Below the pieces are notes generated by a model. That model was given only the letters and a program-made list of their open reading frames with translations, made no database searches and had not been told where the DNA came from. Made by a program: the position numbers and the translations under genes. DNA of 64,000 bases from Protoeuglena noctilucae. Taxonomy: Eukaryota. Location: the NCBI GenBank assembly GCA_958009085.1, contig OY253677.1:620001-684000 (forward strand), given 5' to 3'. Numbering within the stretch: position 1 is the first letter of the stretch; each line of letters starts with the position of its first letter. Of the stretch, positions 4,864 to 35,800 are shown one piece after another.

Positions 4864-7800
4864 TCACGCCTCTGCCCTGGACCCCACCCGGCTCCTCCCC
4901 GGCCCAGGCGTGTTGTGCCCCGACCCCCCTAAGGGCGCCAGCGACGCCCGCGACGCGCTTTGCGACATCCCCGCTGATGCCGTCCCCGACCGCACCTCCT
5001 CCGCCCGCTCCATATTCGTCCTCTTGAGCGCCTCTACGTTCGCGAATTCGAATCCCTCGAACGCCTTATCCAATGCCTCTTTTTCCTCCGAGTCCGTCGT
5101 GCTCTGGCTCTGGCACCCGCCGCTGTCAGAACCGCCGTCAGAATCGGAGTTTCGGCCGGACTGCGGGCTCCGCGGCTCCGGCGGGGAGCCGGCGGGTAAC
5201 GAGCATTGCGCATCGGCGTCCCGCGGGGCATCGTCCGCGGCAGCACCGGCGGCGGCAGTGGGGATGCGCACAGTGAGCGGCGGGCCGTGCGAGCTGCGGC
5301 GGCTGTGGGGCGGCGAGGGGCTGCGGCCGGAGCTGACGCTGCGGCCGCTCCTGCTCGTCCCGCCGCCCACGCTGCTGCCACCCGTGCCACCCATGCCACC
5401 GCCCACACCACCACCCATGCCACCCCCACCGCCCCCACTGCCACCCCCACTGCCACCCCCCAGGTAAAACCCCGCCGAGCTGCGCGGCGACGCCCCGGCC
5501 GCATTGGCATTGGCGTCCAGAACGTGCCGCAGCAGCGGGTTAGACGCCTCGCTGTTAGCACCAAACCCCGCGTGACCGGCATGCTGCGCGTGGCTTGCAT
5601 GGGGTGCGTAGACGCCACCACCCCCCACGCTCTGCGAATTCGCGGGGTGGATGCCGACCCCGTGCGCGCGCGGGTGCGCGTCCGGGGCAGAGGCGGCGGT
5701 GGCGAGCGTGGCGGGGATGTGGGCGGCAGCGGTGGCGTCATTGCCGAAGGACCCACGCCTGGGGTGGGGCGCGTGGCGATCTGCCGAGGAGCGGCGGGTG
5801 AGCGGTGGATCGATCGATGACCTCCCTGACGATTCGGTTTCCACGGAGTGACGGTTGGGATCGATGGGGATGCCCTGAGAGGAGCGGCGTGAGGTGGCGG
5901 TGGAGGGGACCGGGCGTCGTGGGTCGGTGGGGCTTCGCATGTCCGAGGGGAGGCGAGGGAGGGTCTGGGGGGGTGAGGGAGGAGGGGGAGGGGGTTGGGG
6001 GTGAGGGAGGGGTGGGGTGGGGGTGAGTGGGTGAGGGGGGGGTGAGGGGGGTGGGGGGGTGGGGAGGGGGTGGGGGAGGGAGGGCGAGGAGGAGTGAGGG
6101 GGGAAGGGTGGGGAGTGCTGTTGTAATCTGAGTGCTGCTGCTGACAAGAAGCAGCCGCCTGCACCCCCCCTTCCCTCACCTCAGCATCGCTGCTGTCTAA
6201 GCCAGTGCTATCATCAGTGCTACCATCAACCACTGCAACAACCACTCCCCTATGCACTCACCCTAGCACTCCCGCCCTCCGGCATAGACCACGCCGGCTC
6301 CTTCCCCCCCCCCGCAGCCGTAGCAGCCGACAGCGGAGATCTTGTGGTGGGCGCAAACAGCGACGATGCCGCCGCCATCCTCGCCCCGCCCGCCATCGCA
6401 GTTGCGTTGGCACCAGCGGGGGTGCTTTGGGGAGACGTGACGGATGTGGAGTGAGGCGGGAGGGTGGCGGAATGGACGGGGGATAGGTGGGATGGGCGGG
6501 GGGCGGAGGTGGGGGTGAGGGTGTGGGCGGAGTTGGTTTGGCTGAGGGGGCTGTGGATGGTGAGGGGCTCTCCGGTGAGCGAGCTGACGAAGGTGGTGGA
6601 CGCGAGGGGTGAGGGCGAGGTCTGGAGGGGTGACGGGGGGCTGCGGGGGGGGGGAAGGGGGGGGAGGGGGTGAGTGGATGAGGTGAGGTGAGAGATGGTA
6701 AGGGAAGGGGGGGTGGGGTGATGAGGTGAAAGCGACAACAACAATAATAAACAACGAACTCATCATCTCACATGCACTTTCAAAGAGCTCACATCCAGAT
6801 CCAAGCAACCCCCTTCCCCCCCCAACAGTCACGTCCCCGGCATCCCCCACCCTTTCCCACCACCACGCTTACCTCAACGCTAACAAGACTTGCTAAGAAC
6901 AACAACCCCACAATCAACAAACACCCCCCCCCCCCCCTCCTCCCTAATCACTCACGTCCCCGGCATGCCCCCCAATCCCCCCCCCTCCTCGCTTACCTCA
7001 ATGCTACCAACAAGTACCACTACAATTTCCACTACCAACGCATCACCCCACATCCAATCAACCCCCTTAACACCCACTCACGTCCCCGGCATCCCCAACC
7101 CTCCTCCCCCCTCCTCGCTGCTCTCCGGCCGCGAAGGCGCCGGCGACATGGGGTTGCTGGCCCCATCCATCGACGACCTCCTCACTCGATACCTCGTCAG
7201 TTGATCCACGCTCACGTCCGCCATATTACTCCGCCTTCTAGTCGACACCGATCCCGACCCGCCACCCCCCGCCCCACCCCCCGCCGCCGAGCTCCACCGG
7301 GATTGCGTGGACGCCCCCAGATCGCTGGCCATCTCCCGATCTGACACTGGTTTCTGGTAGAAGTAGCTGGTGTCGGTCGCGCTGTCGGTTTCTGGCACGA
7401 ACGCGGCCTTTTCCTTGGATAGGCTGCTCCAGTTGACGTGGGCGAACCAGGGGTGGGATTTGACCTCCTGGGCGCCGCGGTGGCCCAGGCGCTTGCTCGG
7501 GTCCATCTGTGAACGGGTGAGTGGGTACAAGTATAAACCATTGTAGCATAGACCAATATATCATCATTTCACAACCTCCCATCCACCAACTCACCGTGAG
7601 CAGCTTGTTGATCTGATCCAAGCACGGCTCCGACAGCAACTTACCATCTATCGATATTCTATATATATGCAAGTATAATCAGTATCACCCACCCCTCACC
7701 GTGAGCAGCTTGTTGATGAGGTCCACGCACGGCTCCGACAGCAGCGGCCTCCCGTCCTCCTCGGTCGGGAAACTTATTGCGCGCTCGAGAATATTGTCGA

Positions 7801-10800
7801 ATATTTCCTCGGGCGTGTCCGCGTGAAACGGGGGCAACCCCACGACTAATTCGTACACCACCACCCCCAGCGACCACCAATCCACCTCCGGCCCATGGGG
7901 CTGCCCCAGCAATATCTCGGGAGCGAGATAGTCCGGCGTACCCACTTTGCGCTTATCATCCACCCGCATTGCGCCGGGAGCGTGCGCGGACGGGTCACTG
8001 ACGGAGGCAGCGGAAAGAAACGACGGCACTTTGGCGGGTGCGTGGAGGGCGGGGGTGGCGGGGGTGGAGGCGATGGATGCGTGGGCGGTGAGGGAGGGGG
8101 CGTCGGGGAGCGACGGGGGTGGCAGCGAGGGTAGCGATGCGAGTGCGGGTGCGGTGGTGGTTGATGCCAGCACCGACGCAGTGGCGGGTGCAGTGGTTGA
8201 CACTGATAATGATCCCAATCCTGTCGCACCCCCCGCAGTGGCAGTAGATACCAACCCATGCCCCGTTGTAGGTGCGCTGGTTGACACCGATACCGACCCA
8301 TGCACCGCTGCCCCACCCCCCGCCGTTGCTGTCGACACCGACCGCGGTGTTTGGATGCCTGAGGAGGGCTCAGAGGGCGACCCCGATGAGCCGTCGCGGT
8401 GCGCGGGCGCTGCGTCCGGTGGCTGCGTGGAATAGACCACATCGGTGGCGCCGCGGGTGCTGAGGCCGAAGTCGGTGAGCTTGACGTGGCCGTCGGCGCC
8501 GATCAGGAGGTTGTCGGGCTTGATGTCCCTGAGATATGGGGAAGAGAGGGAATCAATAAATGGGATAAAGGAATTATTATCGATATAATGGTTAGTATAG
8601 GTGATGTCACAATAATTATAACTACTGTCATATATCACAGGAAACCATCTTACATCTCTATTATTACACAGTTATCGTCATAATAATCACCATATTCACT
8701 ACTTCGTCGCTACAACTGACAAATCCTCGCCTGTGTATGACCCCGTTGGCGTGGCAGTACTCGAGCGCCAGCACGGCTTCGGCCACGTACGTCCTCGCCA
8801 CGTCCTCATCCAAGCTCTCCAGGTTGCGCAGAAGCGAGAACAGGTCACCACCGGGCGAAAACTCCATCACCAGATAAACGTTCTCCTTTGACTGAAAGGA
8901 ATAGAAGAACCGGACCACAAAGGGGTTGTCGGTGGTCGCCAATATGTTGCGCTCGTTCTGGACGTTCTCCACCAGGTTCTTGCGCAGTAGGTCCTTCTTG
9001 CGCATCGCCTTGATGGCGAAGAGGTCGCCGGTGGCGCGCTTCTGGGGGGAAGGGGGGGAGGGGTGAGGGTGGGGTGGGTGGGGGTGGCAGTGGGGTTTGG
9101 GATGGGGGTGGCAGTGGGGGTGGGGTGAGGGGAGGGAGTGGGGGTGGCAGTGGGGGTGGGAGTGAGGGGGTGTGAGTGGTTGAGTGGTCGTCACATCCAC
9201 GCTTTTGATTCAGCATCGCCCTGTCAACCCACCCACCCTCACCTGCGCCAGGTACACCCTTTGTGCGCCCTTCTCACCACTACTACTCAACTTTACATTT
9301 AACAATCACCAATTCCCTTACAACCCACCCACTTTCTCACCTGCGCCAGGTACACCCTCCCGTGCGCCCCCCGGCTGATGGGCTTGAGGATGACAAAGTC
9401 GTCAATGCTCATGCTCGCCGCCACCTCCTCCCTCAAATCCCGCGCCGTGGGCCGCCGTTGCACCGACGCAATGAACTCCAGTTTCCGCTCCACCAGCCCC
9501 GCGAGCTTGAGCGCCCAGATTAGCGCGAGCGACTCCGCATTACGGTACTCCTTTTCCAGCGCCGTTTGGAATCCCCGTTGGTCCGAGCTGAGAGCGGAAA
9601 GCACGCGCTCCCTCCCCCGCACCGCCTTGCGCACTTGCTCCAGCAGATTGCTGCACCGGCGCTCGGGCAGAGCGGTCCCGTCCGGTTGCACGCTCGAGCA
9701 GACGCGGGCGAGGGACGCGAGCCGTCGCAGGAACGCGGCTTGTCGCGCGAGGACCTTGCCGGCGCTGGCCCCCGCGAACCCCTCGGCCCGGTCGCGCTCG
9801 CTGACTTTGGCAAAGGCTCGCTGCAGGCGGGCCAGCTCCTGGTCCTCAATGGCGTTGGCCAGGCGGGCGAGCAGGGGGTCCACGTCCCTGGAAATGGGAG
9901 AATGAAATGGGGATCATTACTTAACAGTGTACCAGGTACGCACACCTCGCCAAATCTGAGTGTCGACACCCCCACCGCTCCCCCCACTGCTACCCTCACA
10001 CCAACCTCCCTGCCACCCTCACTACCACTTACACCCTCACACCCATCCCCATCCTCACTGCCACCCCCACCACCATCCCCACAATCACCTACCCCAGCTG
10101 CTATCCCCTCACTACCGCACACTCACCCACACTCGCACTCACATTCCCACTCCCACTTTCAAATCCTCTCCATTCCCCTAACATTCCCACCCCCACCCCC
10201 ACCCCCCCTCACCTCCTCTCCGCCCCCGCCGCCTCCACCACCGCACACACACGCGAGTGGTCGGAGATCAGCGCCATGGGCACCATCGCCTCGCAGATGC
10301 GACAGATGACCTCCATCTTCGAAATGGGCTGCCGGTCAGCGTCAAGCGAGTAGCGCTGGGGGCGGCGGTGGGGGGTGTCGCCCCCGCTGTCTTGGGATGT
10401 GCGGTCGCGCGAGGGGAAGACGGGGCTCTGGGGGGGAGGGGGATAGGGGATTGATGTTAATTTGACATTATATATTGTACATTATGCTATATTTACCACG
10501 TTATGCTGTATGTATCCTTTAATTTCCTATAATACTCACCCTCACCATAGACAATAACAAGCGATCCCCGCCCAGTGATCAGCAATAAACACGTCATCCA
10601 TCCGAGCTTCATAACAACCACAACAACCATAGATCCACCCAAACCCACCTTGGGCTCCCCCCTCCCCTCCTCTGCAACACGCCCCCCTCACCACACAGCA
10701 AACGATAGCAGACGATAACCCAATAACAGATAACCATCCATCCATTTGGACATCGATAAACATCAACACTATCCATATTCCAACCCCACCCACACCCACC

Positions 10801-13794
10801 TTGGGCTCTCCCCTCCCCTCCTCCTCCCCCCCCTCCCCCCCCTCCCCCCCCTCGCCCCGACCCGCCCGTAACCCCTCCAAAAAGCTCGGCGGCACACCGT
10901 CCGCCGTCCTCCTCGCCATCGCCTGAACCAGCTCCTCCGAATGAGTCACTTGCAATCCCTCAATCGCCAAAGGCGCTGCGTTCATCGACCGCCGACCACG
11001 CACCGCCGCTGAGCGGGGCGGCCGACGCGACCCCTCACCCCCCACCCCCTCGCCCCTCGCCCCCGCCCCTTTCTTATTCCCCGATCCGCGGAACCAAGAC
11101 GTGATGCGCACCAGCCCAGCACGGAACAGGTTCGTTCTCCCACCCAAGTCGTCCACAGCACGTTCCCCCGCACCCCCGGTACCATAGCCCCCCTCCCCGT
11201 GCCCCCCCTCGCCCTCCTCCCCCTCCCCCCCCCACCTCGCCCGGCAGGTGGTGAAACTCGGATCTGGCGCGCTCCCTGTCAGTGGACTTGCCAGTTACCC
11301 TAATCACCTCGACGTCGGCGTCGCTGTCGCTCGGGGCCGTGTCGCGTAAGGATGTGTAGGATGATGACTCGCTGAGATAGGCTGGCTCGGGCTCGTCGCC
11401 GGAGAGGGCGTGCTTGGGGTCGCCGAAGCTGGGGGGGAGATGAGGGGGGTGGGGGTGTTAGTGGGGGGGTGAGGGGGGGGGGGGGGGGGGGTGTGAGTGG
11501 GGGGTTGGAATGCTTTGAAAGGATAGCTGAAGCTGTGAGAGTGGGGAGGGTGTGCAATGCTACCCCCTTCCAACACCCCCGCAACCCACCCCACCCACAC
11601 TCACAACGCAACACCCCTCAGTACTATCAACACCCAACCCCCCCATATAGTACTACTATACTGTCCAATCACGTCGCCTCGTAGCTCTTGGCCACCCCCC
11701 TCTACCAACAACACTCGCAACCATTACCAGTCACTCATAACCATCTACCCCACACATATATACATACGCACTCACGTGGCCTCGTAGCTCTTGGCCACCC
11801 CCCCCGGCCCGACCTCGCTGTAGTTCCCCAGCCGCTTGCGCATCGTCACTTTCCGCAGCCAATCACTGTCCCCCGCCCCCCTCTCAGGCGGCTTTCTCGC
11901 AGCTTCCCGGATCGCCCGCCGCTGCCGGCGCTTTTCGGCTAACAGCGCCTGGGCCAGCGCAGTGACGGTCACCAGCAGCTTGGTGACGAGCAAGCGTGTG
12001 CCACGGTGCAGCACAACTGCACGCATACCCTCCAATTCCGACCGCACGCTCGCGAGCCCTGACTCAAGCGCTGAATCAGTCATACCCAACACACGGTCGG
12101 CCGTCGCTTGCAATTGGTGCAATACGGCTTCGATTTCGTCAGTGGCGTCGGCGGAGAGGATGGGGGCGGTCAGGCGCACGCTCTGGCTGCGGGGCGGGCG
12201 GGGCGGGGAGGGGACCGCGAGGGTGGGCGGGGGTGGGAAGGTGTCGGCGGGGGCGTCGGTGGTGGTGTGGCGGGGCTGCGGGGAAGGTGGGAAGGGGGAG
12301 GGGTGAGGTGCGGAGTAGAGTGGGGTGGGGTGAGGTGTGGGTTAGGGAGTGGTGGGTGGGGGGGGAAGGGTGCGGTGCGGTGCGGGTGGGGAGCGGAGGG
12401 GCGAGGATTGAGGGGCGCCGCAACGCGGAGTGGCCCGCTGTCACCGTCAAGCGCATCGATACACCATCACCACCGCATCTAGCCCGTGACTCAGTAGTCG
12501 TCAGTCACCATCATGCACAGCGCTGGCGAATCGTGCGTTCATCCACACCTGCGCCAACACACCCCCCCACACACGCACCTGCCGCGCCCCCCCGGGGCTC
12601 TCCATCGCCTCCTCGTCATCCCGGCCCTCACTCCCCCCTCTCCCTCGTCCCCCTCATCCCCGAGCCCCTCCGCCTCCTCCTCGCTGTCGATCCCCAGCAG
12701 ACCCGTCGACGCGTACGCGGACTGCAACGCCAGCTTCTCCCGGATCCGCTCCGCGCGCTCCTTGTTGCCGACCAGCTGCGGAGGCGCCTCGCGGGTCCCT
12801 TCCCCGATATCCTGCCACCCCGCAACGGAAGCGCGGGCTCGCATCTGGCCCCGCCCCGCCCGGTCCGCCAGACGCTCCAAGCGCTGCAGCTCCATCTTGC
12901 GACGACGCTGCACATCGATCTCCTGCTCCACCTGGTGCTTGAAGAGCTCCAGCTCCAGGTGCATGCGCGTAATGAGCGAGTTCTTGTCCCTGCGAAGAGA
13001 TGCGGTCCCGGGGCGGCCCTCGGGCGATGCGGGGCGACCGGAGAGTGCTCAGGTGATATCTACAAGTAATATAAAGCTATCGCGCATGTCTGGCGATGCT
13101 CCCGCGCTGCGCAACGCTCACCCGGGGAGCAGGGTGGAGCTGCGCTTCTTGGCCAGCAGCGCGCGCGCGAGGTCCGTCGACTCGGGCTTCCGGCGCTGCT
13201 CCTTCCCCGGCTCGGTCTCCTCGGATCGACTCGTGCTCGCGCCTGCGGTCGCGGGGCGGGGGCAGGCGCGTCGGCGGGGCCGTGGACCGGCGACACGGGC
13301 GCGGCCGGGACGCCGCCCCCGAGGGTCTTGGCGGCACGACATACGACGGATGGACATACATCGACGCGAGGCCCGTCGCAGCGGCCGCGAAATCGCGCAA
13401 GCGCGTCCACGGGGCGCGCACCGTCCGAAACACGGGGCGTCGTGGGTCCCGACGTGGAGACGGACGCCCCCTCCAGTCCCGCGATGAGCTCGTCGATCCG
13501 GTGCGATCCAAGAATGCCACTGGCGACGGCCCGGCTCCCCGTGGGCGACGTGGAGCCCGAGGTCCGCGCGTCCTGGATGGAAAGTCGCTTCGACAGGCCG
13601 GGGACGGGGAGCTCGGGCACCCCGGCGCTCCCCGGGCTGCAGATAGGGATACGGGAATCGCATCCGTCGCTCCTGGCCCGGCGCAGGGGCACTTGAGATG
13701 GGCAAGCAACGCGCGAGGCCCTATGATGCAGGAGACGCTTTAAGACCCACCTGCCGCCCGCTCCCTTGGGCCCTTCATGCTCTTTACCCTTCAT
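4864..13794 (-). CDS. IRE/IREH1-MAST/Greatwall-type AGC Ser/Thr kinase, multi-exon
   Basis: Exons encode [64 protein letters not shown], a long activation-segment insert, [16 protein letters not shown] and an AGC tail with FEGFEFAN. The 5' exons and start codon are uncertain. Confidence 0.9.
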
Positions 13795-15208: not shown

Positions 15209-18200
15209 GCAACAGTGGCGGCGGCTATATCCACCCCTCTTCCTGCATCTACTTCCGCACCCCCGCTCGCCACACCTCCACTCGCCGCCACGCCCCCCCC
15301 GCTCCCCTCTCCCCTCACCCTCGCCGTGGCCCTCTCCCCCCGCTTCCTCGCCAAGCACCGCGCCTTGAGCCCAGAGGATTTGACCACCCACCCCGCCCAG
15401 TCGGCGTTTCTGGCACTGGCACGCGCCCTGTCCCCCGCCCTCGCAACCACCCTCCACGACAGCTCATCGACTGCCCTTGGTTCCGACGCGCGCCCCTTCG
15501 ACACCGCGGCGCTATTCGAGGCAATTAAGCCTGGTCCCAATTGGCCAGAATACCGGGGTAGCTTGCCGGCGCTCGTACCTGTGTTGCGGCCTTACCAACG
15601 GCGCGCGGTGGCGTGGATGCTGGGAAGGGAGCGAGCAAGCGAGGTGGGTGATGCTTTTGGAGGAAATGGTGGGCGTCGTGTGCGGTTGGTGCGTGGGGTG
15701 ATGATGCGTGGCTGGGGTGCTGGAGGGGTGGCGGTGGCATGGGTGTGGGGGTGGCGTGCTTGCGAGTGGCGACGAATCAACAACTAGCTGCGTCACGATG
15801 ACACAAACACTGACATTGCTTTTCCTTTTTGTCGATTGCAGGGTGGCAGCGGCAGTGGGGTGCGTGTGGCTGCGGCTGCGGGTGCGGGTGCGACGGATGC
15901 ACTGCACCCACTATGGGCGCGGCTTCGCTGTGACAATGGTCGCGAGGTGTTTGTGAACACATTCACGGGCCGTGTGTCGGAGCAGCGGTTTGCTGCGAAG
16001 GGGCCTGCGAGCGTCCGCGGTGGCATCCTGTGCGACGAGGTGAGGAGGGGTGGCGGTGGTGGTGGTGGTGGTGGTGGTGGTGTTGAGGGTGAGGGTGGCG
16101 TGTGTTGTGCGATGAAGTAAGGGGGTTGATCTTGGCAGGGCCACCTTGATTGCTTGTTACCGGAGCTTTCTATTGTTGCAATTGCTGCCACATCTAGTGC
16201 CACTATCTAGTGTCTACTATGCAATACCACCCAACTATCGACACCCTTACTGCCTCGCTTATGACTCGCAGATGGGCCTGGGGAAGACCGTGGAGTTGCT
16301 GGCATGCATTCTGGCACATCCACGGGGAGAGGGGGATGGGATGGGGGGCGATGCTGATGACAGCGACGGTGATAGCGATGGTGGGGAGAGTGATGGGGGG
16401 GAGGGCATGGATGGGGGCAGTGGTGGTGGTGGTGGGGGTATAGGGGGCAGGGGTGGGGGCAGTGGTAGGTATTTGAGGGGGGTTGGCATGAGGGGCAGAG
16501 GTGGGGGCAGCGGTGGTGGGGATGGCATGGGTGGGAAGGGCGGCGGTGGGGATGACAGCAATGCGGATAGCGATGTGGATGTGGATGTGGATGATCATTC
16601 CGACACAGCCACCCGCTGCGCTGCGTGCGGGAGCAGGGCGGAGGACCGGTGGTGGGTGCAGTGCGACGATTGCGGTGCGTGGCTGCATCTGCGGTGCACG
16701 GGGCTCAAGAGGGTGCCTGGGAGGGAGGAGGCGTTCGCGTGCAACGATTGCGTGGTGAAGAGGGTGCAGGTGAGTTGGGGAGATGCATGGGTGTGTTGTG
16801 ATATCACTGCCAGCGAGTGCGTGGTGAAGAGGGTGCAGGTGAGTGAGATGGGGTCGTGGTTGTGATGAGCGTGTGGGTGTGACGAGTGCGTGGTGGAGAG
16901 GGTGCAGGTGAGCTGCTCTGTCTGTCCCCATCTCATTTCTCTCTCTTTCACCTGGCTTCACTTGTCAACGCCCCATCCCTGTCATCCACCCCACTTTTTC
17001 ACCCACCCCTCCCGCCCCACCAACCCCCACCCCTCCCCCCCATCTCTCTCGATTACACATGGCTTCACTCTGATCACCCCACCCCAACCCCCTCTCCCCC
17101 ACCCCCCCCAGCGCCCCCGCCCCCTCCCCAGCCCAGCCACGCTCGTCGTCTGCCCCCAGCCCCTCCTTCGCCAATGGGCAGAGGAGATACACCGTCATAT
17201 ATTGCCAAATACACTGCGCGTGGTTATCTACAGAGGGCAAGGGGCTGCGACCAGCAATGCGGCATTGAGGGTGGTGACGCCGGAGGAGCTGGCGGGGGCG
17301 GATATCGTGCTGACGACCTACGACGTGCTCAGGTGCGAGGTTGTTTGTTATGATTGAGTTATTGCAAATTGCACCGTTATGATGTACATTTAGTAGGTGT
17401 TTATTTTGCTTGCCACCTACGACGTGCTCGGGCGAGGTCGTTGTGGTTGTGTAGATGGTAGTGTTATTTATAATATCGAGTCCTTTATATTCAAACACCT
17501 TCCCCCCTTATCGCCCCTCGCAGGCGTGAGGTTCACCTCCACCCCTCCTCCTCCCCCCCCCGCCCCCTCCGGCGCCCCAAGCGCTTTGCGGTCGTGCCCA
17601 CCCCCCTCACCCGCGTGCAATGGTGGCGCGTGTGTCTGGACGAAGCGCAAATGGTCGACAGCGGCGCGAGCAAGGCGGCCGAGATGGCGCTGCATCTGCA
17701 TGCTGTCAATCGGTGGTGCGTGACTGGCACGCCCGTCAATCGCGGGATTGAAGACCTGCAGGGGCTGCTCATGTTCCTCAGGCGAGGGATACTAGTGGTT
17801 GGTGTTTTAATAGTTATGATAATAGTTGTAGTTGCAGCTATTGTGATTTGCAGGGGCTCCTCATGTTCCTCAGGCGAGAGAGGGGGTGGTTGGTTTAGTG
17901 TTATAATAATTACAATTATTGTATATAATGATTCTAACGATAATGGGTAAGCTCCATATGTTCCTTTTTCTGAGAATGATAATAATAATCAAACACATCC
18001 CCTCCCCCCCACCCACCCAGGCTCCCCCCTTGGTCCCACCGGCCCTGGTTCCGCCGGGCCATCCAAGACCCCGTGCTGGCGAATTCGAATTTGAATCCCA
18101 ACCCCGGCGATTTCAAATTCGAATTCAAACCTTCCCAAAACACCGACACCGCCCCCTCTTCTGCCTGGGCCGCGCTGCTCTCCGCGCTTCGCCCCGCCCG

Positions 18201-21200
18201 GGGCGGGGTGATGTGGCGAAACGGCAAATCTGACGTCAAAAACGAGCTGTGTCTGCCGGACCTGGAGCACGTGGGGACGCGGCTGAGGATGGAGGGGGTG
18301 GAGGTGAGGGAATGCGGGGTGGGGGTTGATAATTGGATAATATGTAGTAATTAAATAGTATGTGGCTGCTGGACAGTAGCTGATGATTAGACCTTCTCCA
18401 TTTATATATCAGGCAATCCCACCACACGCACACGATCACGCTCATATCTCGTCACTCACTCTCACCCACTCACTCATTCACTCACCCCCTCATCATCCCT
18501 TGTCCCTCCCCCCAGCGTCACTTCTACGTCCAGCAGCACAGCAAAGTGGTGAAAGAGGCACGGGCAGTGCTGGCGGCGTGGGCGGGGCAAGTGATGAGGG
18601 GGGCGGGGGGTGGGGGTGCGGTGGGTGGGGGTGGCGATGTGAGGGGTGGCATTGGGGGCGGGGAGGGAGTGGTGGGTGGGGACGGGGCAGGGGGTGCAGT
18701 GAGGGGTGGGGATGGGGATGGCGATAGGAGGGGCGGGGGACAAGCGGGGAGTGGTGATGGTGGTAGGGAGGGTGGCGGTGGGGACGGGGGTGGCGGTGCG
18801 GGTGCGGGTGCGGGGGCGGGTGGCGGTGCGGGCGAGTGTGCGGGTGCGGGTGCGGGTGCGGGGGTCAGTGCAGGTGCGGATGTGGGCACATCCCATGATC
18901 ATCAGGACCGTGCTTTGACGGATCGCGAGGCCCGCAAGTTGCTCAACTCCCTGCGCCGCCTGCGCCAGGCGTGCTGTCACCCCCAAGTGGGCGCGGGGGG
19001 GCTGAAGGGGCCACGGCAGGCCACGGCGCCCATGACCATGGACGAGGTGGGGTGGGGTGTGGGGGGTGGGGTATATGTTATATCAACACATATGAGATAT
19101 AATTGTTATTATATCAACATTTCATATTTTGGTTATTATTATTAAATGTAATTTATTTATTATTTTTATAGATAACAGATAAGGAATTACAAGTAATATC
19201 AATATCGAAGCTCCCTGTATCCCCCCCATCCAGGTCCTGGACGCGTTGGTGTCGCGCGCCCGTACCGACGCTGAGGAGGCGCAGCGTCTGCTGGTGGCGA
19301 GTCTGAATGGACTGGCAGCCCTCGCATTATTGCGGAACGAGCCGCACGAGGCGATCCGATATTACCGCGAAGCTCTGCGGCAGGAGGAGGCGACCCGGGG
19401 GGTCACGCGGGTGGACCCCTGGCAGCAGCTGCACACGATGGTGAGGGAAGGAATGGTTATTGTGAATATTATTGTAGAAATTATTGCAGTGAACTTATAC
19501 TCGTGTAGAAGTGGATGGCATAGAGGAGGGGTCACGTGGGTGGACCCCTGGCAGCAGCTGCACACCATAGTGAGGGGGGGGTGATAGTATGATGAGAGCA
19601 TTAATCGCACAGTGCTTGTGTTAAAATCTGCACATTGTTGCCTCTGGTTTTAATACTAGTAATTTTAAGATAATAGTATTTCATTTGAAACTAACATTAC
19701 CTCCCCTCCCCCCTCCGCAGCACAACCTGGCGAGCGTGATCGACGCTCACCCCGAGGCCCTCGCTGTTGCTGGCCACACGCGGAGGGACGGGTCACTGAA
19801 AGCGCAAGCGGCCGATATCGAAAACGGCCTCTTAGCCGCCAACACCGCGAAGCTGGTCGAGGAGGATCGGGAGTTCGCCAAGGCGAGGGGGTTGTGGGGG
19901 GGAATATGGTCATGATATTGTGATTGTACTATGTTTATTATTGTGATTATTATTTTATAGTTTATAATTCTCTTATATATACTATATACATGGATATTTC
20001 ATGAGATAACAATCGCTATTGGGTTAGGGTTAGGGTAGTGATAATTCAATCGTGTCTCGTCTTCCCCCAGGAGCTGGCTGCGTGGGAGGAGGCGAGGAGA
20101 GAAGCGAAAGAGTGCCTGGGTGGCAACGGGGAGCAGGGGTACGCGTTCGTCATCGACGCGCTCGAGAGGGGTGAGTAAAGTTGTAGTAAGTATATGCTAT
20201 ACTGTTGATAGCTACAATTAATTATGTGCAATGCTAGAGTGGTGCGCGTTCGTCATCGACGCCCTCGAGAGGGGTGAGGGGTGGCCGTGGATGTGATTGA
20301 TACTAACTGTGATGATAACGATGAACATTATTACCACTGCAATAATGATTTCGGTCATATACTAGTCGTCATAAACATGACTTGCCCCAACCCCCCTCCC
20401 CCCCACTCAGGCCTCCCCGATTCTGGCGCCGAGGTGGCCCAGTCCGTCAAAGACAAGCTGCTCGAAACGTTCGGGGATTCCTACAACAGGATCACGCAAG
20501 TGAACGCGGCGTCGCTGGGCAGGAAGTTTCAAACGCTATCCGGGCTCAAGGCGGTGCTGTTGCGGGCGATGGGGGAGGGGCAGCGGGCGAGGGAGAGGGC
20601 GAGGGAGGGGGTGGAGGAGATGAGGTGAGGGGGGGTGGGGGTGGGGATGGGGTGGGGTGTTGGTGATTGTCGAATTGCGTTGATTTTTGGTCAATATTAG
20701 ACTACATATCTATATTACCTATTGCACGCCCCTTCGCCGGCACCCCCCTTCAATAGATTTGATATTATAGTCACACATGTTTTATATACAAATGAGTACG
20801 TAATCATCAACAAATACTTCCTCACCCCCCACCCCACCCCAGGTCTCTGTGCTGGCACCCACCCCCCGCCCTTGTCTCCCTTGCCGGCCAGTGCCGCCAA
20901 TGCCGCACGGTCGATACCGGCGTGATTGGAATCGAATGCCGGCACTGCCAATTGGACAATATCGCCATCGGGCCTTGGGAAGCCACGCTGTTTGACGTGA
21001 GAGCAACGGCGGTGACGGCGGGGGGGAGCGTGAGTGCGGTGGATGCGGCTGCTGTGGCGGCTGCGAGGGTCAGGGATCGGATGGACAGGGGAGGGATACT
21101 GGGAGAGGGTGGGGGCGTGGGTGGGGTAGGTGATAAGGGTGGCAGTGGGGGCGAGAATGGCAGCAATGGTGGCAGTGGCAGTGAGGTGATGAATTTGAAT

Positions 21201-24200
21201 GCCGGGGCAGCAAGGGGCGGCGCGGCTGGGACGGTGACGGTGGTGCGCCATCCCAGTGAGGCCGAGCGCGTGCTGCACATGCTGGCGGCGGCCGCCAGAA
21301 ACGCGGGGAGGAGGGGGGGGTGAGAATTTGGATGGGAATGGGGATGTGAGGGTGTGGGGATGGGATGGGGATAGGGGAGGAGGGGGGGTGAGTGGTGTGG
21401 GGGAGTGCAGATGTGGGGATAGGGGTATGGCGATGTGGGGATAGGGGGAGAGAGGGTGGGTGAGTGTGAGTGTTGGGGGGGTTGGGAATGGGGTTGGATG
21501 CACATCACATCAAACTCACCCTTCTCACATTACATTCCACCATCACTCACCCCGCCCCACCCTACATCACACCCCACCACACTCACCCCACTCACCCCCT
21601 GCACATTCACACCCACACTCACCCCACCACTCACCCCACCCCCCAGCCCCGCCATCGACCCCTCCCTCCTGCAAGCATCCGAAAAGCACCTCGAGGCCAT
21701 CGCCAGAGAACGAAAGCTCTTCCTCAAAGCACGTTCGCTGCTACTGGCACAGCGCGGCACGTTGATTGCGAAAGATGAAATCGCAATGTGTTTGTCGCGC
21801 GTTAGGCTGCGGCAGGAGGGGGAGTGGGTGGAGGAGGGGTCTTTGGATGCGTTGCACAAGATTCGGGGATGGGAGGTGCCGGTGAAGACGAGGGAGATGG
21901 AGGGGGAGAGGGGTGAGTGTGTTGGTGTATTGGGGGGAGTAGGGGGTGAGGGTGGGGTGGAGGGGGTTAGTGAGGGGGGAGGAGGGTGGGGTGGCGTGGG
22001 GGAAGGGGTGAGGGTGAGGGCGGGTAACTGATGGGCTTATGAGGCACAGAGCTTTGGTAAATAGCTTTGGTTAATAAAGTTAGCAGCTATTACAGTTATT
22101 AGCAGTTAGCAGTTATTACAACTCATCCCCGTCATCCCACGCTATTCCCCCCCTTCTCGCAGCTGCCAGTGCCGCTGATCTGACCAAGGCAATGGGGTCG
22201 CTGCGGTATCTGTTAAACCTGCAAGCAGCGCAGAGGAGGGCGAGGGGGGCCAGGAATGCAGAGGGGGGTGCGGTGGGGGGTGGGGGTGGGAGTGCGGGTG
22301 GGGGTGGGAGTGGGAGTAAGAATGAGGGTGCGGGTGGTGGTGGAGGTGCGGGTGGGAATGAGGGTGGGAGTGAGGAGGGTGGAGGTGCGGGTGCGGGTGC
22401 AGAGGTGAAGGGTGCAAGCGCGGATGGGAATGAGGGTGCCGCCGCTGTTAAGCCGACGGGAGCGGATGGGGTGGCGGCGACGATGGCAGATGGGACGATG
22501 GCAGATGGGTCATCTCCTATTCAACCACCCACCGCTCCCCACCCCACCACCGCTACTCACCCCCCCACCACTCCCCCCGACCCCACCCCACCCCCCAACA
22601 GCGACTTCGCCCACCTCCCCACCTCCTGCCCCATCTGCCACGACGACCTAAACGCCGATCTGGCGATGTTCCCCTGCGGCCACGCGCTCTGCACGCGCTG
22701 CTGTTTCAAACTCCTCGAGCGCGCCAGAGCGCCCGTTTCGCACCATCGCCACGTGTCGTGCGCTATGTGTAAAGCGAGGGCAATGGCGGAGGACGTCGCG
22801 TTCGTGACTGGGGGAGGTGCGGGGGGTGCGGAGGCGGGTGCGGGTGCGCAAGTGACGAGCGGGGGGGTGGATGGGGAAAGTGCAGTGGCGTTGCGCGGCT
22901 CAACCACCAGCACCAAGATCGGCGCTGTGGTGCGGAGGATCAAGTATTTACTCAATGCGAATATTGACGAGAGAATCGTGGTGTTTAGTTCGTGGGGGGA
23001 GGTGCTGGATCTGGTGGGGCACGCTTTGGGGGAGAATGGGGTGGGGTTTGTGAGGGCGGCGGGGGGCAGGGACGTGGCGAGGGCTCTGGGGGAATTCAAA
23101 AATGGGTATGGCGGGGAGGGGAGGGGAGGGGGAGGTGGGGGGGTGATGCCTGGGGCGGTCGAGGCAGGGACGGTGGTGCGGGGTGAGTGGGGGTGGGCCA
23201 TGGTGGGTAATGATTGAAGGTAGTGAGTTGTTGTTGAGGGGTGACGGCTGGTGAGGGGTGGGGTGAATGAATGAAGGCAGCGATTGTTGTGGATGGCGGT
23301 GGGTGGTAATGGGCGATAGCGGTGGGGCAAGTGGGTGCAGTGCACCCCACACCCTCCCTCACCCCCCTCTCATCCAATCCCATCCCTCTCCCCCCTTCTC
23401 TCCCCCTCAGGCAAGCTCACCCAACAATCCCGCCCACCTCGCTCACGCCCACGCCCACCATCCACCCCCACCGCCACCACCACCCCCACCACCCCATCTC
23501 TGCTACCACCACCCGCCACCCCACCGCCCCCACCCCCACCCCGCGTGCTGCTGCTCCCCCTATCTCTGGGTGCCAATGGTTTGAATATCACAGAGGCGTG
23601 TCACGTGGTGTTCTGCGAACCACTGCTGGACCCGGGGGAGGAGGCGCAGGCGATCGGGAGGATACACAGGCGAGAGATAGATGGGGTAGATATTATATGT
23701 GTGGGTACATTTGGGTATGTAATGGGATGTATGTATGGGATAGTGATGGTTAGAATGGATGGACCCAGCTGACGAGGCGCAGGCGATTGGGCGCATTCAC
23801 AGGTGAGGGAAATATGTGTTTTGTTAATGTTGGTTTATAAAGGATATGTACCTGGGCTAGTTTGGAGGCAAGATTGGGAGGGATGCCTCACCCACTCACC
23901 CACTAACACCCTCACCCTCACCCACTCACCCCTCCACCACTCACCCTCCCTCACCCCCCTCACCCACTCACCCCCTCACCCCCACTCCCCATTCCCCTCA
24001 CCCCCCCAGGATCGGCCAGACTCGTCCCTGTTTCGTGCACCACTTCGTCATCGATAGCACAGTCGAGGACAACGTCTATCGATTGGCTGAGGAAAGGCGA
24101 TTGGTGATGGGGGTGAATGGGAGTAAGAGCGGGGGGCAGGGTGTGGGGGTCAGGCAGAGGGCGGAGTGGGGGCTGACGGTGGGGGAGGTGGCGAGGCTGC

Positions 24201-24217
24201 TGAGGGAGAGGGGGTGA
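14768..24217 (+). CDS. SHPRH: SHPRH-like SNF2 helicase / PHD / RING E3 ubiquitin ligase, multi-exon
   Basis: [27 protein letters not shown], a PHD finger (CAAC..CDDC..HLRC..CNDC), [24 protein letters not shown], a RING finger (CPICH..CGHALC..C..CAMC) and [13 protein letters not shown]. Confidence 0.92.
15173..15213 (+). repeat. (ACA)n trinucleotide repeat encoding poly-Thr in SHPRH exon 1
   Basis: acaacaaca... run in the reading frame that gives TTTTTTTTTTTT. Confidence 0.9.
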
Positions 24218-25331
24218 GGGGGGGTGAGGGGTGAGGGGTGAGGGAGGAGGGGTGGAGGGGTGAATGGAAGAAGAGTGAGGGAGTGGGAGGGGGAGAGGAG
24301 AGGGAAAGCAAGAGGGATAGTGAGGTGGAGAGGAGAGATGGGGCAGCTCAGCTCAATTCAATTTCTAAACACATGCGAGAGATGGCAGTTTCGCTTTAGC
24401 TGCACACGCGCTTTTCACTCCCCACTTCTATAGACGCTATAAATGCCTTTTACTGGCTCTATTGCGTCGCACCAGGCACCAGGCGGGCCCTTTTGTATTC
24501 CTCCACTTTCACTCTATCGCTTGTCGTGCCCGTATTGCTCTCAGGGCTGCATCGCCTGCTAACAGTCATCGCCTGCTGTCAGCCCCGCCACGGAGCGACA
24601 CCCGCACCCTGGGTGTGCACCCACTCAATTCAAACAGATGCTCTATTGCACTGGCTATACGCATACACCTGCACACCTGCACCTGCATCTGCATCTGCAC
24701 CGATGCGGAGCTCCTCTGACCGGCCTCGTCAGCCTTGCCAATGGACGTGCAATGATGAACCTTGGAAACCAAAGCCCCATTCGGGCGTGCCAGATTCTTG
24801 CAATTTACGCCTGCCGGGGTCGTTTGTTCAGCGTCATGCGCGTGTGGCCGTACTGCATTCCACGTACTTGACGACGTGGGTGGCTGCATGGGAGATATCC
24901 TATGCATATGCTCTCATCGTCGCAGAAAGCACGAGCTTGGGTGCCGCACCGTCACGCTGCTGGATAAGCGCTTCCATGCGACCGTGTACCACTTGCTCTA
25001 AGCAAAGGTCATTTTGCCGGGCCACGTGTCGCGTGCGGCACCCGAGCAGTCTAGCCTCGCTCGCACTGCTAGCTCACTCACTACACCTCTCTCAGGGACG
25101 TGCACGGCACCGCAGCTTCGCTCTGTTGCACTAAGTGCAGCATGCGGATGTGCCGACCTCGGTACAGTCAAACGGTACGGCCTGCTCGTCGCACCGATGT
25201 GAATGGCATGGGTGGGACGGGCACGCGGTGTCTTTTGACCGCCCCGAGGTCGGCGCGTGCGTGTGCTGTGCTTGCTGCAACATTGCCAAGCTGCGTGTGG
25301 TGTGCTATGCTCTAGGCTTTCTGCGACTCAC

Positions 25332-25778
25332 TGGTGTGGTGTGGTGTGGTGTGGTGTGGTGTGGTGTGGTGTGGTGTGGTGTGGTGTGGTGTGGTGTGGT
25401 GTGGTGTGGTGTGGTGTGGTGTGGTGTGGTGTGGTGTGGTGTGGTGTGGTGTGGTGTGGTGTGGTGTGGTGTGGTGTGGTGTGGTGTGGTGTGGTGTGGT
25501 GTGGTGTGGTGTGGTGTGGTGTGGTGTGGTGTGGTGTGGTGTGGTGTGGTGTGGTGTGGTGTGGTGTGGTGTGGTGTGGTGTGGTGTGGTGTGGTGTGGT
25601 GTGGTGTGGTGTGGTGTGGTGTGGTGTGGTGTGGTGTGGTGTGGTGTGGTGTGGTGTGGTGTGGTGTGGTGTGGTGTGGTGTGGTGTGGTGTGGTGTGGT
25701 GTGGTGTGGTGTGGTGTGGTGTGGTGTGGTGTGGTGTGGTGTGGTGTGGTGTGGTGTGGTGTGGTGTGGTGTGGTGTG
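25332..25778. repeat. Perfect (TGGTG)n pentanucleotide microsatellite, ~445 bp (~89 units)
   Basis: Uninterrupted gtggt units between the SHPRH and VPS4 3' ends. Confidence 0.98.
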
Positions 25779-26178
25779 CTCTGTGCAACTCACTTTGCAA
25801 GCCGCTGCGGCTGTCGTGCATTCGCAGCACCTGTCACACAAACACAGCTTGGTATACAAGAGTGTATACAAGTGCATCGCTATTCCCTCTCTCTTGAATG
25901 ACCCGCACAACTTGTTATCCCTTTATCCCTGAGTCAAAGCTACCTGTATGTGGCAAAAATTCAGACACCCCTCTCTTGATCTTCTTCAACCTCAGCACCA
26001 CTGCCGCCGCCGCCCTCGCGCCAACCCCACCAACGCTACCTCTCTCAACCACACCCTCCGCTCTTCATATCACCAATACCAACCGCACCCTCTACCCCGC
26101 CACCCCTACCCCACCCCAACTACCACCCTCACGACCCCCCCACCCCCCACCCCACCCACCACCCCACAACCCCTTCCC

Positions 26179-32831: not shown

Positions 32832-35800
32832 ATGTCTTGTGCGCGCAGTCTACCGCGGCGGGCGCCCGCCCGGCCGCGCCGGGTCCGCACGCGCAACATG
32901 GAGGGCGCGGACCTGCAAGTCGACGCCCCCGTCGCGGCTGCGGTCGATATAAGCGGCGTCTCCGATCGCGAGACGGAGCGTCTATCTCGTTCGGACAATG
33001 CCGCGGGCCCGCACGACGCAGCCGCGGCGTCCCCGTCGCGCCACGGGGCGCCCTCAAAGCATCACGATCCCCGCCCGTCCCTGGCCCGCCGCATGCTGAG
33101 CCAAGATGGCCTGGAGGGCAACCCCCTGGAGCTATTGGAAGTCACGGAGCGTTTCTGGTCTGCGCTCAGGCACCAGAAGAGGCCTGCCAAGGGGCCGACG
33201 GTGGTGAAAGAGGATTCAGGCCCGATGCCCCCCCGGCCGGGTGTGGGTGTGGGTGTGGATGGTACGGGGCAAGGTGCGGGTGGCGGTGGAGGTTCAAAGC
33301 ACGATTACGACGCCGTGGTGTGCGGGGGTACGCTCGGGGTGGTGCTGGGGCTGGCGCTGCAGCTGCGGGGGCTGTCAGTGTGCATTGTGGAGAAGCGGCT
33401 TCTGAGGGGGCGCACGCAGGTGAGATGGGAGATGAATGGGGTGGTGTTGGTGGTGGTGTGAGATGAGGCTGTCGGTGTGCATTGTGGAGAAGCGGTTGCT
33501 GCGAGGGGGCGGCCAGAGGTGGGTCGAGGTAGCCAAGGGGAAGTGTGGGTGGGTGAGGAGTAGAGTGGCTGTGCCAATCTGTGCCTCATTGCACCCACCC
33601 ATGAGCCACTTATAATGACCATCTCACCACCACCCCCCATTCACACCCCATCACGTCACCCACCCATCCCCGCAGGAGTGGAATGCGTCATGGGACGAGC
33701 TCATGGCCCTGGTACACGAGGGCCTCATCAGCGAGTCCGAACTGCGCGACTGCGTCAAGTCCGAGTTCAATCCTATCCGAGTGGGCTTCAAGGGCATGAG
33801 GGAAGACCTCTACACTACCGACGTACTCAACATCGGGTTGGCGCCCGATGCGCTCATCTCGCGCCTGCGGGCACGATACCTGGCGGCGGGCGGGGCGTTG
33901 CACGAGCGCACTGCCTTTCGCAATGCGACGGTGTATGCGGACGGGGTGGTGGTGAGGGTGGCGCCGGAGCCAGTGGGGGCGGGGGCGGTGCTGGACGCGG
34001 GGGACGTGACACGGCCCACTCTGGCACAGGGGGACGGGTGCCAGAATCGCCAGAATGGGGAACGGGGTGGGGTGGCGGGGGGAGAGGGGGAGCGGGGTGG
34101 GGTGGCGGGTGGGGGCGAGCGTGGGGAGAGTGCGAGTGCCAGTGCGAGTGGCAGGCATGGACACAGTTACGAGGTTCAAAAGACGGGGCCTTTCGAAATC
34201 CGATCTCGTCTGGTGATCGACTGCATGGGTCATTACAGCAACATCGTGAAGCAGGCGCGTGGGGGGGGCAAACCCCCAGCGATGGTGGTGGTGGTCGGGG
34301 GGTGTCATCCGGGGGTGGCTGAGGGTGGCAACACGCATGCGGATCTGCTGTATACGTTTCAGGATGCGGAGGACGATCTGCAGATGGTGAGGGGCTTATT
34401 GGGTACCAGTGAGGTAGTGAGGGAGATAGTGGCGTGTGTGAGAGGAGCGGAGGGGCGAAGGGCGTTGTGCGTAAGTGAGAGTGACACCCGGTGTCCGGTG
34501 TGTCTCCTCATCGCAGTACTGGGAGGCGTTCCCTGCCGAGGGTGGTGCACTGAGGACCACGTACATGTTTACCTACTGCGACGCCAACGGTGAGGGACTG
34601 GTGAAGAGTGGATGGGTGTATTACTTGCATGTTCACCTGTCCTGTTACCTCCTCACTGCCACCCCTTCCCCCCCCCCCCCCCCCCCCCTCACCCCACCCA
34701 TCACCCTCATCCTCTTCCCTCCCCCCCAGCGTCGCGTCCCCCCATCGAATCCTTCCTCGACACCTATTTCCAATCCCTCCCCGACTACCAAGGAACACCC
34801 CTCGACGACCTCCGTTTCAAGCGGATCCTGTTCGGGGCATTCCCCGCCTACCCGGACGGCCCCCTGCGCCCCGCCTTCGATCGCGTGGTGCAGGCGGGGG
34901 ATGCCGCGGCCATGCAGTCGCCGCTGGTGAGGGGATATGTATTAGATGCATCATGATTAGTATCATGTGTGTACTATAATGCCACTGTACTATAATAATG
35001 ACTGCTGTACTGCTGTTTTACAATAGTACCACTGTAGTAATGCAGTAACAATAACTTACATGACATAATCAATGCCCCTTCCTCTCCCCAGTCCTTCGGC
35101 GGCTTCGGCTCCATGCTCCGCCACCTCCCCCGCCTGTCCCGGGGCCTCCACCGCGCCCTCATCCACGACCGCCTCAGCAAACGAGACCTGGCGTGGCTGC
35201 ACCCGTACCAGCCCGCCCTCTCCCTCGCCTGGCTGTACCAGCGATCCATGGCCATGCCGATTGGGGCGCTCAAGAGCACAGGCGAGACGTGATGTGCTGT
35301 GCATGTGTGGGGAAACGATCGTGCTGGGGTTGTGTGGGATGACGGTGTGAATGGGACAGTCAGTGTTGATTTGGGACATTAATGAAGCAGTACCAGTAAA
35401 TTGCTCTGTAGAACAACAATAGTAAATTTAACAGCTTCTAGAAAGCCTTGCAGCTATGCATACCAAAGCCTCACCCCCCTTTACCCTAATCACAGAGGGC
35501 GGCGGTGGCTTCGTGACCCCCTCCCACATCAACCGCCTGCTGCGGTGCAGCTTCACCGTCATGGCGTCGCTGGGGGAGTGGGTGCTCAGGCCATTCCTGC
35601 AGGTGCGTTGGCAGGGTATTGTCTCTTTGTTTGTATGGCGTAGACTGGGGACTGGGTGCCCAGGCCAATCCTGCAGGTGCATTGTGCTGGGCAATCACGA
35701 AAGTTGACCTGGGCTCACTTGCACCCGCGTTGACATATCACACGATGAAACTTAACATGACTAAAGCCCATCACTCTCACACTCATATTCTCTCCCCACT

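Follow-up and report, generated by a model that had tools for sequence, protein, structure and literature searches.

Near the 3' end of a gene in this GC-rich marine alga, the last bases of the penultimate exon recur in diverged form within the intron that follows, and this copy (hereafter the echo) is followed by a GT donor where the exon itself is followed by GC. The question is why an intron should hold such a readable copy of coding sequence, i.e. whether the echo is used in the mRNA, is kept in step with the exon or is a relic. The stretch of DNA analysed (the window) is 64 kb long. In the host gene, Pfam searches with the exon translations identified, in this order, an SNF2-related domain (SNF2-rel_dom, E 7e-11 and 4.4e-17), a PHD finger (E 1.4e-7), a RING finger (zf-C3HC4, E 1e-5 to 2e-6) and Helicase_C (E 5.6e-6), the order of a SHPRH-like SNF2 protein; the domain search did not return the name SHPRH, which we presume for this gene. 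In the penultimate exon, whose acceptor would lie at 23410-23411, the coding sequence for a Pro/Thr-rich linker precedes that for the final part of the Helicase_C domain. Joining 23669 to 24011 gives the protein junction GRIHR-IGQTR, matching the intronless orthologue P0001/L024. The elements of this region are as follows.

23412..23669, + strand: penultimate exon of the SNF2/SHPRH-like gene (Pfam Helicase_C at 23542-23667; orthologue alignment)
23627..23669, + strand: terminal 43 nt of the exon (exon-end copy), either parent or sister of the echo (repeat family D14)
23670..23675, + strand: presumed authentic 5' splice site of GC type, gcgaga (sequence and orthologue junction)
23676..23759, + strand: spacer, the C-poor, G/T/A-rich intron start and putative intron part of the first unit (sequence, composition)
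23760..23802, + strand: echo, the diverged exon-end copy (repeat search, alignments; the frame of the sequence-only reading starts at 23759)
23803..23808, + strand: pseudo 5' splice site of the echo, of GT type, gtgagg (sequence, motif count)
23809..23877, + strand: post-echo sequence with a weak, gapped alignment to the spacer (local score 15.5)
23878..24010, + strand: C-rich 3' part of the intron, acceptor cag at 24008-24010 (tblastn matches of orthologues begin at 24008)
24011..24217, + strand: last exon, ending LLRERG and stop codon (orthologue alignments, tblastn)

GC donors are common among GC-rich marine algae: in Emiliania huxleyi they make up 56-65% (PMC4028052), in Micromonas pusilla 25.6% (PMC4815162) and in pelagophytes ~14-17% (bioRxiv 10.1101/2024.10.30.620910).

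The echo was first described in a reading made from the sequence alone, and the exon and echo letters quoted there were recovered exactly, with 23669 and 23802 as their last bases. The exon end at 23627-23669 is repeated at 23760-23802 (43 nt, offset 133 nt); a repeat search of the window aligned 23627-23683 with 23760-23816 (57 nt, 79% identical, spacing 133), and an offset scan over the whole window recovered the pair twice. Its local score is 25, whereas the query reached no more than 14 on other introns, which makes a chance origin untenable. The exon reads ctg gac ccg ggg gag gag gcg cag gcg atc ggg agg ata cac ag, then donor gcgag, and the echo atg gac cca gct gac gag gcg cag gcg att ggg cgc att cac ag, then gtgag, so that the reported contrast between the two donors is real on direct reading. 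Nine of the 44 bases differ between exon and echo, and three of these differences alter the residue (L/M, G/A and E/D). Since amino-acid identity (12/15) is no higher than nucleotide identity (35/44), it was an overstatement that the echo had diverged almost only at synonymous sites. In the 3' half of the echo, all four differences are silent. Apart from the gtgagg at 23803..23808, no G[TC]GAG motif occurs within 200 nt of the intron start, and no further copies of the spacer 23676..23759 were found in the window.

At least 14 exon ends of the window are followed, 69-151 nt downstream, by a donor echo of this kind, with cases on both strands. Seventeen of the 19 rows of the offset scan that passed the filters were exon-end-plus-donor pairs, and pair B was added from the repeat search. 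Besides the pair at 23669/23802, the following echoes were identified.

16731..16907, + strand: echo set A, same helicase gene, PHD-finger exon (PHD match); exon end 16731-16769, echoes 16800-16838 and 16869-16907, 69-nt units (families D11/D15)
17303..17431, + strand: echo B; exon end 17303-17332 with GT donor, echo 17402-17431 with GC donor (family D19)
17757..17873, + strand: echo C; exon end 17757-17781, echo 17849-17873, GC donors on both (family D18)
19399..19569, + strand: echo D; exon end 19399-19440, echo 19528-19569 (family D16)
20135..20273, + strand: echo E; exon end 20135-20170, echo 20238-20273 (family D17)
33369..33519, + strand: echo G, in a different gene; exon end 33419, echo end 33519, 2-nt insertion in the echo relative to the exon
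35561..35676, + strand: echo H; exon end 35602, echo end 35676, in-frame TAG in the echo
42327..42487, + strand: echo set I, upstream of FtsH-like AAA/M41 exons; exon end 42340, echo ends 42410 and 42487, three GC donors
6833..7119, - strand: echo set J, in a protein-kinase gene; last exon base 7082, echo ends 6956 and 6833
7595..7743, - strand: echo K, beside the kinase gene; last exon base 7700, echo end 7595
9243..9358, - strand: echo L, same gene (...GRVYLAQ; Pkinase match on the neighbouring exon); last exon base 9341, echo end 9243
10649..10823, - strand: echo M; last exon base 10800, echo end 10649
11673..11803, - strand: echo N; last exon base 11776, echo end 11673

The donor type changes in both directions, from GC after the exon to GT after the echo at 23669 and from GT to GC in B. 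The repeats are of variable length, comprising 14-44 nt of exon and 1-14 nt of intron, and in all 16 comparisons the similarity stops 1-14 nt past the donor. Within the helicase gene, 6 of the 15 donors have an echo (scores 21-33, compared with at most 14 for the nine others), while none of the 13 acceptors (scores 6-11.5) exceeds the range obtained on other introns (one-sided Fisher P ~0.013). This asymmetry bears on the possibility that a second haplotype or a paralogue was joined in tandem during assembly, the case that the sequence-only reading had named as fatal to its own proposal. Both copies are exon-like in composition and the differences of the 23669/23802 pair lean synonymous, as such an artefact would have it; nevertheless, we regard it as very improbable, because echoes occur at donors only and in both gene orientations. 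The pattern follows gene orientation on both strands and in several genes, the copied piece measures merely 14-57 nt, and the echoes contain indels and stops. Moreover, 85-96% of the sampled 31-mers of 15300-24400, the region of the gene, were present in runs from two studies, marine metagenomes included, an indirect indication based on word matching.

A role of the echo in the mRNA also appears improbable, if less so than an assembly artefact. The echo could act as an alternative 5' splice site, giving an isoform that is out of frame and degraded. Alternatively, cag/gcgatc within the exon copy (the slash marking the junction) and the matching cag/ of the echo could delimit a mini-intron of 133 nt, in which case the last 20 nt of the echo with its GT donor would be the real exon end. 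In favour of such use, the GT donor of the echo is nearer to the canonical consensus than the GC donor of the exon, the differences in the 3' half are silent and both copies carry AG/GC at the same position. However, use of the distal donor adds 133 nt (3 x 44 + 1), which shifts the frame, as had been pointed out, and translation continuing past the exon runs into TGA at 23770-23772. The frame of the echo is closed by stops on either side with 19 codons open, and this, together with an offset that is not a multiple of three, renders use as coding sequence unlikely. Sister echoes are not kept as open reading frames either (a 2-nt indel in G, an in-frame TAG in H). A protein search with the read-through ORF 23320-23769 gave no match. 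A mini-intron of this kind would start from a weak donor (gcgat) and lack a C-rich tract, unlike the other introns here, and it cannot be the general rule since the internal AG/G[TC] is missing in pairs such as C, D and K. In any such model only one copy is coding, and silent-only differences are explained no better than by chance. The echo was also considered as an alternative or mutually exclusive exon, and this was rejected: it is not open in-frame, it has no C-rich acceptor tract upstream, and read-through ends at the stop at 23770-23772.

Does the substitution pattern indicate that the echo is constrained? Nei-Gojobori counts were pooled over one echo per exon (13 independent pairs, 132 codons), giving sd 18.3 for S 90.5 and nd 26.7 for N 305.5, i.e. 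a dN/dS of 0.39 (bootstrap 95% interval 0.21-0.73; 0.50 without the 23669/23802 pair). The sequence-only reading had proposed this comparison and held that a ratio near 1 would speak against constraint; the pooled value does lie below 1, but it also fits a neutral echo, as one constrained exon and one free copy are expected to give about (1+w)/2, ~0.5-0.55, not 1. With only one copy constrained, a synonymous-leaning pattern therefore arises without selection on the echo. Purifying selection on both copies would put dN/dS well below 0.5, which is not what the pooled values show, while the interval of 0.21-0.73 leaves room for some constraint on echoes. The 23669/23802 pair alone (sd 5, nd 3 in 13 codons) has a dN/dS of 0.10, based on only 8 differences; the probability that at least five of eight differences are synonymous is 0.10-0.13 under the constrained-plus-free model, before correction for picking the most extreme of at least 13 pairs. 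The synonymous bias of this pair is not significant and the pair is no outlier, so that the argument that a neutrally decaying copy could not look this way does not hold. Orthologues, which were to tell whether relatives match the echo or the exon, gave a mixed answer. The search with the last exon among longer proteins returned only a 56% orthologue, and a metagenome scan for related loci yielded 78 loci (best identity 78%, none from the same species); this intron was absent from all 15 of these loci that were examined for it. The closest orthologue, P0001/L024, has A as in the echo at the G/A site, and L and E as in the exon, whereas other relatives have G. Because both G and A are common at this site among orthologues, polarising the three residue differences is ambiguous.

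The sequence around the echoes is less easily accommodated by simple decay. C content is 22% in echoes and 23% in exons, compared with 6% in the pooled spacers, and C was lost at 10 and gained at 13 echo positions. The repeated islands are 80-100% identical, while similarity between spacer and post-echo sequence has z <1 in 7 of the 17 comparisons (A1, B, D, E, G, H, K) and is in some of the remaining ones weak and gapped only. At the echo under study, the spacer and 23809..23877 align with a score of 15.5, compared with 8.8 +/- 1.7 on other introns (z 3.9; z 6.6 against shuffles), a weak and gapped match; 23809..23877 probably represents the intronic portion of another unit of 133 nt. Pair D is young, with 3 differences in 42 nt, and since in such young pairs the islands are far better kept than their flanks, duplication of a whole unit followed by a uniform clock is insufficient as an explanation.

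These observations argue for a reading that we consider possible yet doubtful, namely that the echo islands are maintained by an active process, as is the exon end, be it by gene conversion from the selected exon copy, repeated re-copying or selection on an RNA-level role. The role would be that of a backup or decoy U1 site or of an AG/GT ratchet site, a variant that we hold with the same reserve: a first splice from the real donor to the echo-terminal AG would recreate the same junction with a GT donor. The constant stop of similarity just past the donor, flanks that are non-homologous or much more diverged than the islands, echoes that do not drift toward spacer composition and the bimodal scores in the helicase gene are all in line with active upkeep. 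So is the terminus of the echo, cag/gtgagg at 23800-23808, an AG/GT junction that is a potential acceptor as well as donor and is preceded by 43 nt of exon-like, purine-rich sequence; in introns B to F the echo donor is the only pseudo-donor motif in the intron stretch scanned. On the other hand, a pooled dN/dS of ~0.4-0.5 together with indels and stops fits drift equally well, homologous tracts of just 14-57 nt are short for efficient gene conversion, the purine-rich echo has no pyrimidine tract ahead of its AG, and homology confined to the islands could be present from birth if the copies arose by microhomology-primed templated copying. Nor does the intron with the echo fold better than shuffles; the idea of a hairpin was dropped, as the exon end plus intron (23620-24025) folds less well than shuffled sequence (z +2.67). 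The wider form of this reading, to which we give slightly less credence, would make 5' splice sites hot spots of directed copying, at which exon end and donor are re-copied or gene-converted 70-150 nt into the intron and the islands, typically ending in AG/GT and possibly serving as ratchet or backup donors, are kept in step while their surroundings turn over. If true, it would mean a genome-wide, donor-specific interplay of DNA repair and splicing, of which we found no description in the literature.

Several candidate signals were tried and rejected. An acceptor-like YAG lies within 6 nt upstream of 5 of the 17 echoes, compared with a null of 0.21 (P 0.29), and an excess of NAG upstream of echoes (12/17, P 0.002) is a confounded result, since part of the AG-rich echo itself falls inside the stretch tested. 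The idea that spacers form a mobile family or are locally templated copies was likewise dismissed: within the 64 kb, the A/T-rich spacers match only themselves, those of G and I1 additionally match G-rich simple sequence, and the scores of spacers against other introns equal shuffle scores.

On balance, we think it probable that the echo is a neutral, non-coding remnant left when sequence spanning the 5' splice site was duplicated locally, and that splicing takes the upstream donor; the notion of a fossil in the sequence-only reading is borne out insofar as the repeat and the alignments identify the echo as a diverged copy of the exon end. In this proposal, a small duplication would have spanned the exon-intron junction of the penultimate exon, the duplicated unit most likely being ~133 nt long and made up of 43 nt of exon end, the donor and ~85 nt of intron. 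If the spliceosome takes the upstream GC donor, the second copy with its GT pseudo-donor would stay within the intron and be merely intron. Since the duplication, the exon copy would have changed nearly only at silent sites because it encodes the end of the helicase domain, while the echo would drift freely, and, GC donors being tolerated in this organism, the T/C difference at donor position +2 would be one more such substitution. Many donors of the genome may have undergone the same process, as the 14 or more exon ends suggest, and its traces would be confined to donors, since a duplication spanning an acceptor, or lying within an exon, would harm the mRNA. The repeat, its recurrence at other exon ends, its restriction to donors, the pooled substitution counts and the closed frames are direct results, whereas donor usage, neutrality and mutational mechanism are inferred. 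Where flanks are homologous, slippage or unequal exchange are candidate mechanisms; where they are not, the candidate is microhomology-primed templated copying at the GTGAG-like motif. At +7 to +206 after 15 donors, G[TC]GAG occurs 21 times, compared with 10 expected from composition, ~7-8 of the 21 being echo-borne; this excess agrees with microhomology priming but is no proof of it.

Known systems share parts of this proposal. In the model ascribed to Rogers, and reportedly in Hellsten et al. 2011 and in cases from Drosophila, introns are gained or changed by tandem duplication of an AGGT-containing segment. As in the alga, splice signals are duplicated locally, the extra copy is spliced out and the mRNA is unchanged; there, however, a new intron arises inside an exon, using GT of the first copy and AG of the second, whereas in the alga an existing intron would be lengthened at its 5' end with no new intron position. 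Introners and introner-like elements form sequence families, and short target-site duplications of fixed length supply a splice site. The algal echoes resemble them in that an intronic insert is flanked by directly repeated sequence of the gene itself, with the donor on the first of the two repeats. An introner-type element was nonetheless rejected here: the spacers are unique and form no sequence family in the 64-kb window, the repeats are variable (14-57 nt) rather than short and fixed in length, and the second copy lies inside the intron, not at its 3' end. Synthesis-dependent, microhomology-mediated end joining of the polymerase theta type yields templated insertions. Short direct copies within ~100-150 bp, one-sided microhomology (here the GTGAG-like motif) and unrelated flanks are features in common with the echoes. 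Copies reaching 57 nt are rather long for this process, which is a candidate only, and we could demonstrate neither an empty-site allele nor microhomology at the left junction.

A further parallel is intron 7 of human F7, in which, according to Borensztajn et al. 2006 (PMC1557585), the first unit of a 37-bp VNTR spans the boundary of exon 7 and IVS7 and splicing selects the upstream-most donor although stronger pseudo-sites with a better U1 match lie downstream. There too, the repeat unit holds the last exon bases and the 5' splice site, and pseudo-donors follow in the intron. A repeat of exon end plus donor motif of this kind was found at the 23669 pair (43 nt plus g[ct]gag) and at 13 other exon ends. 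In the F7 account, however, a single locus carries 6-9 near-identical contiguous 37-bp units, whereas the alga has offsets of 69-151 nt and mostly two copies, conserves only the exon-plus-donor part well and shows the arrangement at 14 or more exon ends in 64 kb, with donor choice presumed. If upstream-most choice as described for F7 also applied here, it would explain why the GT echo need not compete with the GC donor. We found no published description of widespread donor echoes in algae, and one may stand in the Emiliania genome paper or its supplements.

A preponderance of silent differences in an exon copy is no proof of selection on that copy, as a constrained partner alone halves dN/dS. 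For annotation, echoes place strong pseudo-donors less than 150 nt from the true site, here a GT after the real GC, so that gene predictors preferring GT would be misled. With 6 of 15 donors in one gene carrying an echo, this alga offers a natural experiment on 5' splice-site choice among near-identical competitors, and its echo-rich genome also bears on the growth of introns at their 5' ends.

The plus-strand gene studied here encodes, in order, four domains (an SNF2-related domain, a PHD finger, a RING finger and Helicase_C), which we take to be SHPRH-type architecture, and the end of its penultimate exon encodes the last conserved helicase motif. This exon reads ...cac ag to 23669 and is followed by gcgaga; its last 43 bases appear again from 23760, 133 nt downstream, followed by gtgagg. 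The letters quoted in the sequence-only reading for the exon and for this diverged intronic copy ("echo"), with a GC donor versus a GT donor, are thus present exactly as described, and a repeat search of the window recovered the pair as a repeat of 57 nt with 79% identity (family D14). Joining 23669 to 24011 gives the same protein junction as in the closest orthologue from a metagenome scan (P0001/L024), which is intronless. The G+C content of the window is about 65%, and most of its words were found in runs of one organism and in marine metagenomic and metatranscriptomic data, which points to a GC-rich alga of marine origin.

Main pair and others of the echo-bearing exon ends (A to N) named in the text
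23627-23669 (+): end of the penultimate exon, main pair
23676-23759 (+): spacer between upstream donor and echo, main pair
23760-23802 (+): echo, main pair
17303-17431 (+): B
33369-33519 (+): G
35561-35676 (+): H
42327-42487 (+): I
6833-7119 (-): J

The main echo had been read as diverged almost only at synonymous sites, and hence as a fossil, spliced in or gene-converted. The two copies of the main pair differ at 9 of 44 bases and at 3 of 15 residues (L/M, G/A, E/D), so protein identity is no higher than DNA identity. Reading frames of the pairs were assigned by codon-position G+C, and substitutions were counted by the Nei-Gojobori method.

dN/dS between exon ends and echoes
One echo per exon, pooled (13 pairs, 132 codons): 0.39 (95% interval 0.21-0.73)
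Same set minus the main pair: 0.50 (95% interval 0.25-1.03)
Main pair alone: 0.10 (sd 5, nd 3; 8 differences only)

A decaying copy is expected at a dN/dS of about 1, as had been assumed, only if both copies are free; a constrained exon paired with a free echo leads to an expectation of about 0.5. The pooled value is near this one-constrained, one-free value, under which at least five silent differences out of eight have P = 0.10-0.13, uncorrected for the selection of the pair as the most extreme one. In its own frame, the main echo is open over 19 codons flanked by stops, and read-through from the exon into the intron reaches a stop inside the echo. There is no support for the view that the main echo has to be coding, selected or spliced in. 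Echo G carries a 2-nt insertion and echo H an in-frame TAG, and clearly neither is being maintained as coding sequence.

Orthologues side with neither copy throughout: at the G/A site the closest relative has A, as in the echo, while its L and E are those of the exon, and more distant relatives vary between G and A. The main-pair intron (23670-24010) was absent from 15 of 15 relatives examined, and introns in this region are likewise missing from most other relatives, so the many introns of the window gene are lineage-specific. The closest orthologue found (L024, and L022, the contig of P0001) is an intronless gene on a metagenome contig with 78% G+C. The SNF2-gene introns (15600-24010, e.g. 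23183-23411) have a two-part build, with a G/T/A-rich, C-poor 5' part (pooled spacers 6% C) and a strongly C-rich, G-poor 3' part of CCCTCACCC-like repeats up to the acceptor. Within exons of this gene, long in-frame G-rich stretches (16330-16590 and 18600-18890) may represent either unrecognised introns or low-complexity coding sequence rich in Gly/Asp. The spacer between the SNF2 gene and the adjoining minus-strand gene holds a long, perfect tandem array of a 10-nt unit, (GTGTGGTGTG)n (25334-25780, family D5); this neighbour is a VPS4/katanin-like AAA ATPase (Pfam AAA matches), an intron of which contains a GGGGGTGACAGTGGGGTGGCAGT-like tandem array with a period of 11-12/23 nt (26524-26830, family D3).

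Across the whole window, 17 of the 19 non-simple local repeats left by an offset scan were exon-end-plus-donor pairs, to which a separate repeat search added pair B. In total, 14 exon ends (A to N), distributed over both strands and several genes, have an echo at offsets of 69-151 nt, and three of them (A, I, J) have two; among the sites are a protein kinase gene and the stretch adjoining an FtsH-like gene. In the SNF2 gene as modelled, an echo follows 6 of the 15 donors (local scores 21-33 versus at most 14 at echo-less donors), and mirror-image echoes were found at none of 13 acceptors (scores 6-11.5). Tied to gene orientation and confined to donors, this pattern speaks against an artefact of haplotype or assembly, and fits simple tolerance: a duplication spanning a donor would not alter the mRNA as long as the first donor is used, but one spanning an acceptor or lying within an exon would. 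In human F7 intron 7, the one well-studied analogue, the upstream-most repeated donor is chosen even over stronger downstream copies (PMC1557585). A change of donor type from exon to echo is seen in either direction, GC to GT in the main pair and GT to GC in B. GC donors occur at 3 of 14 echo-bearing exons and, as predicted by the exon model, at 3 of 15 SNF2-gene donors; a further probable GC donor of this gene (aag|gcgagg, 19877-19890) has no echo. In GC-rich marine algae, GC donors have been documented at high proportions: 56-65% in Emiliania huxleyi (PMC4028052), 25.6% in Micromonas pusilla (PMC4815162) and about 14-17% in pelagophytes (bioRxiv 10.1101/2024.10.30.620910).

In the main pair, the spacer aligns weakly but significantly with the post-echo sequence (z 3.9 against other introns, 6.6 against shuffles), a resemblance that points to tandem duplication of a putative unit of about 133 nt. 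In set J, part of the unit's intron portion is repeated too (6856-6886 / 6980-7010, offset 124, 84%), making at least this set a true three-unit tandem array. Tandem duplication alone is not the whole story, given that 7 of 17 comparisons showed no flank similarity despite 81-94% identity in the island, the exon-like echo tract plus donor. Exon/echo similarity ends 1-14 nt past the donor in 16 of 16 comparisons, and C content is 22% in echoes, as in exons, and 6% in spacers. An introner-like family was unsupported, the spacers being unlike each other and the A/T-rich ones without a match elsewhere within the window; spacers G and I1 have additional matches to G-rich simple sequence there. The island pattern may reflect any of three processes: very rapid turnover, driven by indels, of the simple intron sequence; templated copying, primed by microhomology at a GTGAG-like motif, that gave rise to the island alone; or conversion from the exon that homogenises the island. 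For the main echo itself, we regard a neutral duplication relic, with moderate confidence, as the most likely explanation. No description of abundant donor echoes with island-like conservation was found in the literature searched, and their genome-wide abundance and conservation in this form are unusual.
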